From assembly GCA_963662545.2 (NCBI GenBank), contig CAXXLL010000002.1, forward strand, positions 384,001-448,000: a stretch of DNA of 64,000 nucleotides, read 5' to 3'. The notes beneath the pieces are model-generated. The model saw nothing but the letters and a program-made list of their open reading frames with translations, did not search any database and was not told the origin of the DNA. A program made the translations under genes and the position numbers. Each line of letters starts with the position of its first letter. Position 1 is the first letter of the stretch. The DNA is from Gammaproteobacteria bacterium. Its GTDB lineage: Bacteria; Pseudomonadota; Gammaproteobacteria; Ga0077536. This document shows, piece after piece, positions 57,991-62,407 of the stretch.

Positions 57991-58078
57991 GACGACCGCT
58001 TACGAGCGCATTGCAGACGTAACCTAGAGCGGTGCTGCACAGCCGCGATTCGGCCGCTGACGACCCGAAGGCGGCATC
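57991..58078 (+). repeat. Bipartite hairpin repeat, copy A
   Basis: GACCGCTTACGAG...TGCAGACGTAA...GCTGCAC...GGCCGCTGACGACCC..GCGGC shared with copies B and C. Confidence 0.8.
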
Positions 58079-58820: not shown

Positions 58821-58909
58821 GACGACCGCTTACGAGGGTACTGCAGACGTAATCTCTAGCTGTGCTGCACTGCGGCGAGGGGGCCGCTGACGACCCAATA
58901 TAGCGGCCA
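58821..58909 (+). repeat. Bipartite hairpin repeat, copy B
   Basis: GACGACCGCTTACGAGGGTACTGCAGACGTAATCTCTAGC...GGCCGCTGACGACCCAATATAGCGGCC. Confidence 0.8.
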
Positions 58910-59048: not shown

Positions 59049-60914
59049 CTATTCGGGGATCTCGAACGCGATCAGTACGTTTCCGGGCAGCCCAAAATTG
59101 AACTGATCCAAGCCGGATGAAACGTATAAGCGGTTTTTCACGATGACGGGCCCCCCGAACGAGCCGAGCCCCCCACCGAACCCTTTGCGGCCGTTAACCG
59201 TTTCATACTCGCGCACCGTATCAAATGTCCACACCGGCTTCCCGGTCGCGGTATCGTAAGCGCGCAGTACGCCGTCGGCGGTGCCCGTGAAAACGACGTC
59301 GCCCGCCACGGTACTGGGCAAGGTAAAGGCATTGCTGCACGGTGGTGTCGTCTTACCTTTACAATCCGGCGTCATATCCTGTATACGCCATACGGACTCA
59401 CCGGTCAGGAGATCGACCGCCGTGAAGGAGCCGTTCGCCTTCCAGTCCACATCCATATCGATGACGGGTACGTAGGCATTTATGCCGTCGCTCGAGAATC
59501 CCCACTCGATACCGCCGAGCTCTCCGCCGGCGCCGAGGCGGATCTGCCACAGGACTTTGCCGCCGTCATCCGGATCCAGGCCGTAAAGCATGCCGTCCTT
59601 GGATCCGGTCACGATGATCTCCTTACCATCCGATCGTTCCACCAGCACCGCGGGAGCCACGATATCCCGGTCACCATGTCCCGTCGGGTTTAAGGGCGAA
59701 CAGGTTTTCTGTTCGGGATCCACCCACTTTTCGCAGCCCAGGTGGTAGATGTCCTGGCCGCCCATCTGCTCGGGCGCCAGTGATTTCACCCAACGCTTGG
59801 CGCCCGTTTTCATGTCCAACGCCAACATGGCGTCGGATTCGGGCACGACCGGCTCGGTCATCTGGTTGCCGGTTGGCACGTAAAGGAGGCCGCGCTTGTC
59901 GTCGACCGTGACGGCCGAGAACACCACGACCCCCGAGGGACCGTAGCGATTCGTGCCGGCTTTCGTCGTGCCCAGATACCCGAATTCCTTGTCGATGGTG
60001 TAAGACTTCCACTTGCGCTCGCCGGTACGCAGGTCATAGGCGACGATGCTGCCGCGAAACGTACAGCACGGGTATTCCTTATTTTTGCCAATATTGAGCA
60101 CTTCTTGGAGGGAGGACACGGGCACGTAAACCATGCCGTCGTGCGCCGTCACGTTGCCCGTAATGCGTGAAGTCGGCGTCCAATCCGCCCGGTCGCGCCA
60201 CAGCAATTGGCCCGTTTCCGCATCTACAGCGTAGACGTTGGCCGCCGTATCGCCAAACACGGCGATACCGTCGGACACGGCGATGTTCGACCTGATCCGC
60301 CATTCCGCCCGGAATGCCCAGTGCGCGCACCCGGTGTCCGCATCGAGCGAGTAGGCCCATTGATTGAGGTTACCCACGAACAATCGGTCGCCCACGACGG
60401 CGACCGGGTGCCCACCACCCTTGGACGCGTGGACCTGCGGGAAGGCCACGGCCCACTTGACCTTGAGGTTCGCTAACCCCGCAGCGGTGAGCTGCGCATT
60501 AGTCACATGCCGGTTGTAGCGGTTGTCGTTCGACAGTCCAGGCCAGTCATGCTCCGCATCGGGTACCAGCGGCGTCTTGTCTTTGCACATGGTCACGCCG
60601 GCACCGCGCGTGCCCTTTTCGGGTTTGTGCCCCGCGATCCACTTGGCTATCGTCCATCGCTTCGCATCGTCCATGCCATTGGCGAACTGTGCCATGACGC
60701 CGAACCACAGTTCCTTGTGAATTTCCTCTGCAGTCATGTTCGATAATGCCGTCAACGATGGGGAAATTGTGGCGCGCCCGTGGCATTCGATACAGTGTTC
60801 GGCGTACAGTGCGGCGCCGTCCAGTCCCTTCGACTTTTCGGTTGCCGGTTCGGCATACGCTGCGAGCGACGCGAACAGGGATCCAAACAGGGGTAACAGG
60901 TGCAGATTTCTCAT
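59049..60914 (-). CDS. Quinohemoprotein PQQ dehydrogenase (polyvinyl-alcohol-dehydrogenase-like)
   Basis: Signal peptide, CIECH heme c motif, repeated D..TG...W beta-propeller motifs, vicinal CC (CCTFRGS). Confidence 0.85.
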   Translation of the reverse strand: MRNLHLLPLFGSLFASLAAYAEPATEKSKGLDGAALYAEHCIECHGRATISPSLTALSNMTAEEIHKELWFGVMAQFANGMDDAKRWTIAKWIAGHKPEKGTRGAGVTMCKDKTPLVPDAEHDWPGLSNDNRYNRHVTNAQLTAAGLANLKVKWAVAFPQVHASKGGGHPVAVVGDRLFVGNLNQWAYSLDADTGCAHWAFRAEWRIRSNIAVSDGIAVFGDTAANVYAVDAETGQLLWRDRADWTPTSRITGNVTAHDGMVYVPVSSLQEVLNIGKNKEYPCCTFRGSIVAYDLRTGERKWKSYTIDKEFGYLGTTKAGTNRYGPSGVVVFSAVTVDDKRGLLYVPTGNQMTEPVVPESDAMLALDMKTGAKRWVKSLAPEQMGGQDIYHLGCEKWVDPEQKTCSPLNPTGHGDRDIVAPAVLVERSDGKEIIVTGSKDGMLYGLDPDDGGKVLWQIRLGAGGELGGIEWGFSSDGINAYVPVIDMDVDWKANGSFTAVDLLTGESVWRIQDMTPDCKGKTTPPCSNAFTLPSTVAGDVVFTGTADGVLRAYDTATGKPVWTFDTVREYETVNGRKGFGGGLGSFGGPVIVKNRLYVSSGLDQFNFGLPGNVLIAFEIPE

Positions 60915-61135
60915 GGTCCGATCTCCCGACATCGTCTTATTGGATGTTCACCCGAGGGCAGTTCTGAAAGCGTAGCAAATCTCGACGAACACCGTTTATA
61001 TTCGGGACCGCTCTTAGCCGCGAGCCGAAGTCAAGCGCTGCGATGCTTTTTATGAGAAGGGAATGGCCGTTTACGAGGGTATCCCAGACCTAACCTCTAG
61101 CATTGCTGCACTGCCGCGATCCGGCCGCTGACGAC

Positions 61136-61951
61136 CTATTGTGTTGAAAAAGTCCGGTTCGCCGTCGGTCGCGATGTGCGTAGAAAAACCGACCGCGCAG
61201 GATCGCCTGTAAGCGACGATCGGCACTCCGGTAATGGTTTGACGACCCCCAAATTTATCGAAATCCTATGCTGCACGACTTTTTCAACACAATGTGTGCC
61301 ACGAGGCACTGAAGAGATAGGGGGTCACTGAAAGTGTCGTAACTCTAACAGAGATGGAGGTAGGTCCTCCAAAGCCGCCCTGCAGGGGGGGGCTTTAAAC
61401 CACCCTAAGCTGCTCCGGTCAAGAGCCGGGGTGGTGAGCGTTAGGGAAAAGGCGTCGCAAGAGGCGTCAGGTGAGAAACAGAGAGACGAGCGCAAGCGAA
61501 CCACTGCTGAAGCGTCGAAAGAAAAATCGGGTGACATCAAAACCGAGTCTGATTGTGTGGCTCGGGAGGGATCCAGCGGGTGCCTGCTGATTGGCTGGGT
61601 GGTGTCCGGTGTATAGGTGGCGTGACGCTGTTTCGGGCTTTGTTAGGGAACGTGGGAACCTGTCGCTTGGATGTCAAGGGAGAAGTTTAAGTGGTCAACG
61701 CCACGAGAACGAGCGTACCAATGCCAGGCACAGGGGCGGAGCAACTCGTAGTAGTGATGAAGCGGGGTAATGCCCGTGGAGCGAAGGGGTTGCGTCATTC
61801 AGTCTCAGGATTGGGTCAACCCGTCAGGGGAGGAGCCCATGAGTGAGACAAAGCCGTTTCTCGGCTGAATGATGGGAGCCGGATGAGCGGAGACGTTCAC
61901 GTCCGGTTCTACGAGGGCCTCGGGGTGAAACTCCCCGGGGCTACTCACCAG
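61136..61951. mobile_element. ~160-bp MITE related to the attC MITEs, right TIR interrupted by the intron
   Basis: TIR ATTGTGTTGAAAAAGTC / GACTTTTTCAACACAAT^CAG; internal CTGTAAGCGACGATC and AATGGTTT..GACCCCCAA are reverse complements of motifs in the 147-bp MITEs. Confidence 0.78.
61294..61948 (+). ncRNA. ORF-less group II intron (IIB, bacterial class D-like), 655 nt
   Basis: 5' GTGTGC, domain V GAGCCGGATGAGCGGAGACGTTCACGTCCGGTTC (61876-61909), domain VI with bulged A, 3' end ...CTACTCAC, ORF remnant MSETKPFLG* (61839-61868). Confidence 0.92.
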
Positions 61952-62062
61952 ACCCTAAACGGCCATCGGCGAAAATCGAATAACTCATCCTGACAGTTTC
62001 GAGTAGGGGAACTCTTGTCGGCGCGGTATCCTTGCGCCTTGGGTATGCGCGAGGGGTGTCCG

Positions 62063-62407
62063 ATGAAGAAGTTTTTGCTTATTCCTTTGCTGTGCGTTTC
62101 GGGGAATGTCGCGGGGGGAGAGTACGGGGTATTCAAGAGCGGCAACGAATTGTTGTCGGACTGCACCGAGACTTCCCGAGGACTGAATTACATGCACAGC
62201 CTCGGCTACATAGCGGCGGCTGCCGACACCCATGACGTTTGGGTGACCTGGGGCGACTTACACAGAAAAATATGTACGCCATTAGAGGTCCCGCAAGAAC
62301 AGCTCAGGCGCGTCGTCGTGAAGTACCTCGAAGAGCGCCCCGCACTATTGGACACAATGGGCAGCGATGGCATCGATCGCCGTGTGAATGCCAAGCATCA
62401 CGTGTGA
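62063..62407 (+). CDS. Rap1a/Tai4-like immunity protein, C-terminus apparently truncated or replaced
   Basis: Signal peptide, SGNELLSDC, LGYIAAAAD, ICTP.EV..EQLRRVVVKYLEERP; the usual terminal AFPC-type motif is absent. Confidence 0.65.
   Translation: MKKFLLIPLLCVSGNVAGGEYGVFKSGNELLSDCTETSRGLNYMHSLGYIAAAADTHDVWVTWGDLHRKICTPLEVPQEQLRRVVVKYLEERPALLDTMGSDGIDRRVNAKHHV

Follow-up and report, generated by a model that had tools for sequence, protein, structure and literature searches.

A class D-like group II intron lacking an open reading frame at the end of an IS1182-derived miniature element in a gammaproteobacterial genome with no detected reverse transcriptase

We analysed a 64,000-nucleotide stretch of a Gammaproteobacteria bacterium genome (assembly GCA_963662545.2, contig CAXXLL010000002.1, forward-strand positions 384,001 to 448,000; "the window", whose numbering is used wherever no other contig is named), which contains a 656 nt group II intron without an open reading frame (ORF) at 61294–61949 on the + strand (Table 1). 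The intron lies at the end of a miniature inverted-repeat transposable element (MITE). It is probably a class D/IIB intron that was either guided there by pairing of its exon-binding sites (EBS1, EBS2 and EBS3) with the target or lost its ORF in situ, and that is now stranded without a helper enzyme. The element is an already known kind of bacterial retroelement. Its class and its targeting of an insertion sequence (IS) end are known biology, since introns of the RmInt type pair in the same way and home into IS elements.

A preliminary description, made from the letters alone, had placed a group II intron within 61062–61966, and two Rfam models match there. The group-II-D1D4-2 model (RF01999) covers a portion of domain I with 115.7 bits, and Intron_gpII (RF00029; domains V and VI, D5–D6) matches 61874–61949 on the + strand with 54.9 bits against a gathering score of 40, the alignment spanning model positions 1–77 completely. 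The intron starts with GUGUG, in agreement with the group II 5′ GUGYG criterion. When the sequence is laid on an alifold consensus of the family, 173 of 176 consensus pairs are canonical and 3 of 176 are not, which is mid-range among 31 relatives. Domains V and VI are intact, as the same description had it, both in the RF00029 alignment and in the alifold consensus.

The position of the intron is defined to the base. It directly follows the 17 nt right arm of the MITE inverted repeat and is flanked by T61293 and A61950, one base inside the right end of the MITE. The 3′ end is placed at C61949 because ten unoccupied copies of the same terminus elsewhere in the genome read ..TTTTTCAACACAAT^A (CAACACAAT^A), and because in a full-length relative located inside an IS3-family transposase gene the frame DITYL is restored only if the intron ends in ..CTCACC (CUACUCACC). 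The first base of the 3′ exon is therefore A61950 (AGACC) and the intron is 656 nt long. The right terminal inverted repeat had been recognised correctly as the interrupted sequence, its 17 nt repeat ending at 61293, but the junction given for it, ^CAG, falls one base early. The intron is real, a class D-like (IIB) group II ribozyme of the self-splicing type that looks intact.

The loops predicted to recognise the 5′ exon fit the MITE end closely. EBS1 pairs over 7 bp with exon positions −7 to −1 and occurs once in the intron, and EBS2, earlier given as GAAAA (61521–61525) pairing with TTTTC, can be extended to 6 bp (61521–61526 with −14 to −9); the likeness then drawn to RmInt1, with a 7 + 1 + 5 pairing and targeting of an IS, agrees with the descriptions of RmInt1 and RmInt2 (PMC4615759). 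A further pairing, of CTG (61549–61551) with CAG at +1 to +3, does not exist with the corrected boundary, since the 3′ exon begins at A61950. The best candidate partner of that base is instead U61614, whose alignment column complements exon +1 in 24 of 31 relatives by Watson-Crick pairing and in 26 of 31 if G-U is allowed, the runner-up columns reaching 23, 22 and 21. We take U61614, with moderate confidence, to be the EBS3 that would pair with A61950.

The EBS1 pairing extends to the family. Among 33 distinct intron/exon pairs of ORF-less relatives (duplicates removed; locus L071, with no landmark, left out) all seven positions pair in 24 of 33 cognate combinations against 216 of 988 non-cognate ones, the latter figure being raised by kinship. 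In the sister species G001, of the same genus, an ORF-less relative lies within an IS6-type transposase gene (..LDE^VFVRING), and its loops CTTCGTT and AGATG pair in the same register with its own exon sequences GACGAGG and CATCT (−13 to −9). GC skew at 400–500 kb of contig C2 of the source genome is +0.023 and the intron is in the G-rich strand, corresponding to the lagging-strand template, an orientation described as preferred by endonuclease-less class D introns (PMC4615759).

Domain IV is reduced to a ribosome-binding site, nine codons and a 5 bp hairpin. The preliminary description had read it as a ribosome-binding site followed by MSETKPFLG and a stop codon, with the reverse transcriptase (RT) gene deleted, and the sequence bears this out: an SD-like GGGGAGGAG precedes a frame from ATG to TGA (61839–61868) that encodes exactly this peptide. 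Its first seven codons align with the RT N-termini of relatives (MSETKPF against MTEAKPY), after which CTCGGCTGA aligns with their last codons. The mini domain IV (D4) hairpin thus occupies the place of an RT gene of ~1.2 kb.

The 158 bp element that carries the intron has the marks expected of an IS1182-family MITE, being short, apparently non-coding and multicopy, with ends shared with an IS and a flanking duplication. Its inverted repeat is perfect over 17 nt (61138–61154 and 61277–61293), and the genome contains six full copies including the one in the window, at 90–94% identity, plus four partial matches. The same ends bound one 1622 bp IS, the transposase of which scores 397 bits on the IS1182 model NF033551 (cut-off 270); the MITE interior is unrelated to this IS. 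An uninterrupted paralogue of the surrounding sequence (C3:354977–355061) reads GACGACCCTAAACGGCCAT, and in a DNA contig of sequencing run X1 position 61132 is joined directly to 61951, four letters being common to both sides. We considered this joint as an empty allele and rejected it, the paralogous repeat explaining it equally well, and it is used only for the 4 bp duplication. With flanks read by eye, the duplication is perfect at 5 of 8 elements (seven MITEs and the IS), the others being off by 1–2 bases.

The MITE is itself inserted in a dispersed repeat, for which blastn-short returns 56 rows in the genome and of which at least 47 copies are anchored on GACGACCC; the same flank is found at 5 of 7 MITE copies. 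This third layer had been described as a hairpin repeat. It is real as a repeat family and not as a hairpin, because the right arm is missing from other members of the family, although in the window the 11 nt outer arms exist (61063–61073 and 61956–61966; chance expectation ~0.17 perfect 11-mer inverted pairs per 1.2 kb). The nesting of intron, MITE and repeat is real, yet nothing unusual among elements whose preferred landing sites are other mobile DNA.

The dispersed repeat (..GACGACCGCTTACGAGCGCATTGCAGACGTAATCTAGAGC.GTGCTGCACTGCCGCGAT..GGCCGCTGACGACCC) is present twice more in the window, at 58033–58066 and 58830–58896. It is clustered, with copies 0.8–3 kb apart (e.g. C2:682–745 kb and C3:887–931 kb), and the MITE lands in it preferentially. 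Two integron integrase genes in the genome score above the NCBIfam cut-off (C2:996723–997664 and C3:1527239–1528180); considered as integron attC sites, the repeats have no R″/R′ symmetry by eye and their arrays do not adjoin the intI genes.

The source genome (G000; three contigs, 96.85% complete) offers no apparent helper. There are no RVT_1 (PF00078) matches in it, and a tblastn search with the RT of a relative gives no match (best E 4.8); the D5–D6 model RF00029 has one match in the whole genome, the window intron itself. The RT of the sister species G001 is only 31% identical to class-D-like RTs (451 aa ORF; TIGR04416 297.6 bits against a cut-off of 300), and no Rfam group II ribozyme is found within 1.5 kb on either side of the G001 RT-like ORF. 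This ORF is at C13:6914–8014 (L176) of the G001 assembly, with a partial second copy at C16:208563–209216 (L177).

Potential target sites are plentiful and almost all empty. Exact TTTTC-N-ACACAAT sites number 62 in the genome, made up of one that is occupied, ten empty MITE/IS ends and 51 empty copies in an element of the ISNCY family. The ten empty IS1182/MITE ends, one of which is the left end of the same MITE, carry A at +1, so that one of 11 such ends is occupied. The preliminary description saw the intron as mobilised in trans and homing to the end of a multicopy MITE/IS, with a full-length class D RT donor and sister ORF-less copies to be looked for in the genome. For the present day neither part stands, given the lack of any RT match, the single occupied site among 11 perfect ends, the unoccupied ISNCY sites (0 of 51), and the survival of just one further copy, as a broken 3′ remnant. 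An intron mobilised in trans, as TeI3 is, should be accompanied by a related intron-encoded protein (IEP) in the genome and by several copies at cognate sites, and this genome appears to have neither. What is found is close to the outcome set against that view at the outset, a single copy with no compatible RT; the accompanying notion of a one-off deletion is too narrow, as loss of the ORF recurs at least 13 times (see below).

The ISNCY-family element (NF033593, 474 bits; e.g. C2:53053–54762, L182) is 1710 bp long, is present in 51 copies and reads ATTTTC-C-ACACAAT^C. The motif is at element positions 114–126, ~20 nt upstream of the transposase start, and agrees with the intron-binding sites IBS2 and IBS1 in all 12 positions, with C instead at +1. 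Matches to the 12 nt target are expected 0.2–0.7 times per genome, and the ISNCY coincidence is unexplained.

The remnant is the second copy of this lineage in the genome (C2:1713391–1713458, L002, and 1715080–~1715103) and is 96% identical to the window intron over D5–D6. The genome's one IS1182 element interrupts its domain V, flanked by a duplicated GGAT, and its upstream part is removed by an IS256-like element. A copy of the intron has thus in turn been invaded by the IS whose ends serve as the intron's targets. Two lineage-specific patterns have no matches in metagenome contigs, which is weak evidence as the matching was exact only.

RNA libraries contain sequence from the intron. Contigs of three metatranscriptome runs, drawn from two studies, cover it from 61480 or 61492 to 61812 or 61853 with 0–1 differences, which shows presence in RNA libraries and not splicing. 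Coverage of the intron flanks is missing in two of the three runs, from which no conclusion follows.

Relatives were collected by scanning 185,579 species genomes for the ORF-less spacing between a domain III motif (D3) and D5. This found 64 ORF-less loci with 48 distinct D4 sequences in metagenome-assembled genomes (MAGs) labelled as many phyla. It replaced a junction pattern that was biased by design (16 loci, 9 without an Rfam group II match). The labels of MAGs with such mini-D4 introns include Acidobacteriota, Chloroflexia, Planctomycetota, Nitrospirota and the delta-, gamma- and alphaproteobacteria, as well as Chlorobi, Bacteroides, Bacillota and one archaeon. A comparable terminal D4 hairpin is seen in most of the 48 distinct relatives (folds judged by eye), with stem sequences that vary between lineages, such as AACCAU/AUGGUU and GUCA/UGAC.

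A tree of domains I to III (D1–D3) for 93 distinct sequences, 30 ORF-less and 63 full-length with the latter sample biased to relatives of one RT, requires at least 13 changes between the ORF-less and full-length states. Several sister pairs consisting of one ORF-less and one full-length intron are 96.3–98.7% identical (support 0.94–1.0), and in three recent pairs 1216–1222 nt have been lost with different junctions and with the D4 stem kept. These comparisons show ORF loss to be recurrent and stereotyped in the class. This suggests that class D introns lose the ORF as a matter of course, because the 64 loci trace to at least 13 independent losses, all of which keep the D4 stem.

The window intron is an orphan in this collection, its best identity being ~70% among the 92 other sequences, and the G001 copy is not its sister. 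We considered a shared ORF-less ancestor with the G001 intron, the D4 junctions being similar, and rejected it, as the two are 69.9% identical and not sisters on the tree. Such junctions arise independently, so a similar D4 junction is evidence neither of common descent nor of mobility after the deletion. A speculative extension, which we hold loosely, is that the stereotyped loss of ~1.2 kb sparing the D4 stem perhaps arises by an RT template jump and leaves hidden mini-D4 introns of ~620–670 nt, and that the window copy has outlived every helper, perhaps persisting by its own splicing or through renewed mobilisation by RTs that arrive horizontally in its host-associated community.

Several ORF-less relatives are located exactly at the YADD-coding motif of the RT genes of other group II introns (..CGCTATGCCGATGAT^; L023:700–1470, L046, L058, L064, L071 and L073), which is an intron within an intron ORF as described for archaeal introns. 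A different ORF-less type (GTGTGTCCAGCGAAGGCTGG.., Rfam group-II-D1D4-4) is nested within class-D-like introns at L029, L007, L053 and L075; it is on the reverse strand at ~4589–5080 in L029 (domain II/III) and on the reverse strand from ~3233 in L007, and in other cases it is in D5/D6. The ORF-less introns of L023 (a Halalkalibaculum MAG) and L026 (Desulfobacter curvatus DSM 3379), two genomes assigned to different phyla, are near-identical by eye, differing by 12 nt in the D4 loop and by Ns in one record, and suggest either recent horizontal transfer or a binning artefact.

The analysis shows the identity, boundaries, pairings and structural intactness of the intron, the absence of an RT, the site occupancy and the recurrence of ORF loss; how the insertion occurred, and in what order deletion and insertion followed, we infer. 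The intron would have reverse spliced into the + strand at a point one base short of the right-hand terminus of the IS1182-derived MITE, guided by 7 bp between EBS1 and IBS1, 6 bp between EBS2 and IBS2 and a U-A pair between EBS3 and IBS3, with the cDNA necessarily made by the RT of another intron. Alternatively, a full-length intron may have inserted and then lost ~1.2 kb of domain IV in situ. Both routes would lead to the same product, a complete ribozyme with a domain IV made up of a short hairpin, a ribosome-binding site and the first codons. Today it may be transcribed and perhaps spliced, many matching sites stay empty, and self-copying would be impossible; the element is stranded because the genome lacks an RT.

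The second of these routes, in which the intron arrived with its own RT, the ORF was lost later and the ORF-less form never moved, is possible although we do not favour it. ORF loss is frequent and recent in the class, as the near-identical sister pairs and the 13 or more changes on the 93-tip tree indicate; deletions of 1216–1222 nt leave just such a domain IV stem, and the window copy is single. The data do not separate this route from insertion as an ORF-less RNA, however, and it too requires that the genome has since lost an RT-bearing lineage. The remnant copy does not reveal whether it was full-length or ORF-less, as the IS256-like element cuts just upstream of the domain IV 3′ strand. 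We regard as improbable the reading of the preliminary description, that this is a still-active non-autonomous retroelement with IS1182/MITE ends as homing sites, periodically mobilised in trans by an IEP encoded outside the assembly or horizontally acquired in a host-associated community. An intact ribozyme, intron sequence in RNA libraries and a second, older insertion of the lineage would suit it, as would the retained ribosome-binding site, start codon and D4 hairpin, DIVa being described as critical for IEP binding in subgroup IIA introns (PMC2882425); elsewhere, the L038 group has five identical ORF-less copies with three distinct flanks. Against this, the genome is without an RT, that of the sister species is distant from the class RTs (31% identity) and has no adjoining ribozyme, ten perfect ends are empty, among them the left one of the MITE that holds the intron, and the intron has no close relative, the best of 92 sequences being 70% identical and both lineage patterns failing to match in metagenome contigs. 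That the match between loops and MITE end is coincidental, and that the intron arrived by recombination or ectopic integration, we consider very improbable indeed. Only one site is occupied and the same 12 exon bases occur within the unrelated ISNCY element, but 13 Watson-Crick pairs fall in the same two loops and register as in relatives, comparison with the ten empty ends shows the insertion to be precise to the base, and a 12 nt match is expected only 0.2–0.7 times per genome.

Several points nonetheless weigh against the view of a class D-like intron inserted at a MITE end and left stranded today. The joined exons, 61293^61950, are absent from assembled run contigs (Logan), the only form examined; the RNA contigs cannot exclude DNA carry-over, and a scan of 60850–62150 for sigma-70-like promoters returned none. 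An intact structure and presence in RNA libraries would equally fit an element still in use. The RT is absent from an assembly that is 96.85% complete, and plasmids or unassembled repeats could carry one. As for target recognition, the EBS3 column is only marginally ahead of other columns and no clear outlier, a family permutation test of EBS2 lacked power (cognate mean 4.33, non-cognate 4.09), and the GC-skew argument is a 50:50 prior met once. Membership in class D rests on relatives, the window copy having no protein.

An intact copy that is present in RNA libraries and located in a near-closed, RT-less genome provides a clean natural test of maturase-free splicing, and the same locus tests how long a non-autonomous intron stays intact after helper loss. 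The by-product, 64 loci with at least 13 losses, may be more useful than the locus itself.

Table 1. Features of the intron, its target and the surrounding elements (window coordinates).
Feature	Position	Strand	Details and basis
ORF-less group II intron	61294–61949	+	GUGUGCC to CUACUCACC; Rfam, empty sites, relative's host-gene frame
Domain I portion, Rfam group-II-D1D4-2	61356–61472	+	RF01999, 115.7 bits, E 3.3e-23
EBS2, GAAAAA	61521–61526	+	Single occurrence in intron; complement of IBS2
EBS1, ATTGTGT, loop of hairpin CCGAG..CTCGG	61552–61558	+	Single occurrence in intron; complement of IBS1
Probable EBS3, U61614	61614	+	Motif CCGGUGUA-U-AGGUGGCG (CCGGUGUA-U-AGG); best alignment column against exon +1
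RT gene start/end remnant	61827–61868	+	SD-like GGGGAGGAG 61827–61835, ATG 61839, 9 codons, TGA 61866–61868; alignment with ORF starts (MTEAKPY.., MTRPYA..) and ends of full-length relatives
Mini domain IV hairpin	61852–61866	+	AGCCG (61852–61856), 5 nt loop UUUCU, CGGCU (61862–61866); minimum free energy hairpin
Domain V, 34 nt	61876–61909	+	AGC triad and GAGA loop; RF00029 alignment
Domain VI	61913–61949	+	Bulged A61943 seven bases from intron 3′ end; RF00029 alignment and alifold consensus
IBS2, TTTTTC, exon −14 to −9	61280–61285	+	Complement of EBS2; A61286 (−8) is a one-base linker
IBS1, ACACAAT, exon −7 to −1	61287–61293	+	Watson-Crick complement of EBS1
IBS3 (+1), last MITE base A61950	61950	+	Empty MITE/IS ends read ..CACAAT^A
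IS1182-derived MITE, 158 bp including last base A61950	61137–61293	+	Termini TATTGTGTTGAAAAAGTC .. GACTTTTTCAACACAATA (TATTGTG...CACAATA); perfect 17 nt inverted repeat, multicopy
Target-site duplication GACC, left copy	61133–61136	.	Sequence; paralogue C3:354977–355061; X1 DNA contig
Target-site duplication GACC, right copy	61951–61954	.	Same three bases of evidence as left copy
Left part of the dispersed ~100 nt repeat	61040–61136	+	Core ..TGCTGCACTGCCGCGATCCGGCCGCTGACGACC; MITE in its last bases, resumes at 61951; blastn-short

The class assignment follows from comparison with full-length introns. The best plasmid match is Sinorhizobium (S.) meliloti pSymB, with 73% identity over query positions 57–656 (E 2e-63) and 70.3% over D1–D3; this locus comprises two head-to-tail ltrA introns. 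The S. meliloti match H31 was rejected as an ORF-less relative, its locus consisting of two head-to-tail full-length introns. Full-length relatives in the same bacterial family have ribozymes 68–70% identical to the window intron and RTs of 413 aa and ~419 aa without an endonuclease domain (TIGR04416 412 bits). A class D IEP is expected to have ~419 aa and no D/En domains. The class D C-terminal motif is given as LX3AX3PXLF[V/A]HW (PMC4615759). One relative's RT ends in ..L-GRL-A-GEF-P-H-A-FVHW, with one deviation from it, and that of a second in ..L-DEL-K-ARN-P-T-A-FVHW, with two.

The closest known systems are RmInt1, RmInt2 and Sr.md.I1 of Sinorhizobium, which are class D, IIB introns with an IEP lacking the D/En domain and are described as homing into IS elements, RmInt2 into the inverted repeats of ISRm17 (PMC4615759). 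The window ribozyme is ~70–73% identical over D1–D3 and D5–D6 and shares with them, as they are described there, an EBS1 of 7 nt, a one-base linker, an EBS2 of 5–6 nt and an EBS3 that would pair with +1, along with an IS-derived target and the lagging-strand template orientation. It differs in having no ORF, no RT in the genome, a single copy and an IS1182-family MITE as target; unlike RmInt1, it also has C at exon −15 rather than the T critical for RmInt1, and its 3′ end is ACC.

Bacterial ORF-less introns are described as uncommon and as having a related IEP alongside in nearly all cases (PMC4424553, PMC3245105); one review knows of a single exception, C.te.I1 of Clostridium tetani (PMC4424553). 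The window intron resembles C.te.I1 as described there in being ORF-less in a genome without an IEP-related gene. In contrast to C.te.I1, which is reported from a protein-coding gene with alternative splicing, it is in an intergenic MITE, so that nothing requires it to splice. ORF-less introns have been catalogued genome-wide (Miura et al. 2022, PMC8919778; Zimmerly database, PMC3245105), and the window intron is like those described there in having D1–D4 and D5–D6 within ~1.3 kb and no RT between.

The loss itself resembles that in TeI3 of Thermosynechococcus elongatus (Mohr, Ghanem and Lambowitz 2010, PMC2882425), in which a domain IV deletion leaves N- and C-terminal ORF remnants and an intact ribozyme, and the mobility of which is described as depending on the protein of another intron. 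TeI3 is a CL/IIB1 intron with 17 copies and with driver IEPs in the same genome, whereas the window intron is D-like, single and without a helper. The 17 copies of TeI3 are traced in that account to one ancestral ORF deletion; in the wider class to which the window intron appears to belong, the ORF has been lost many times independently.

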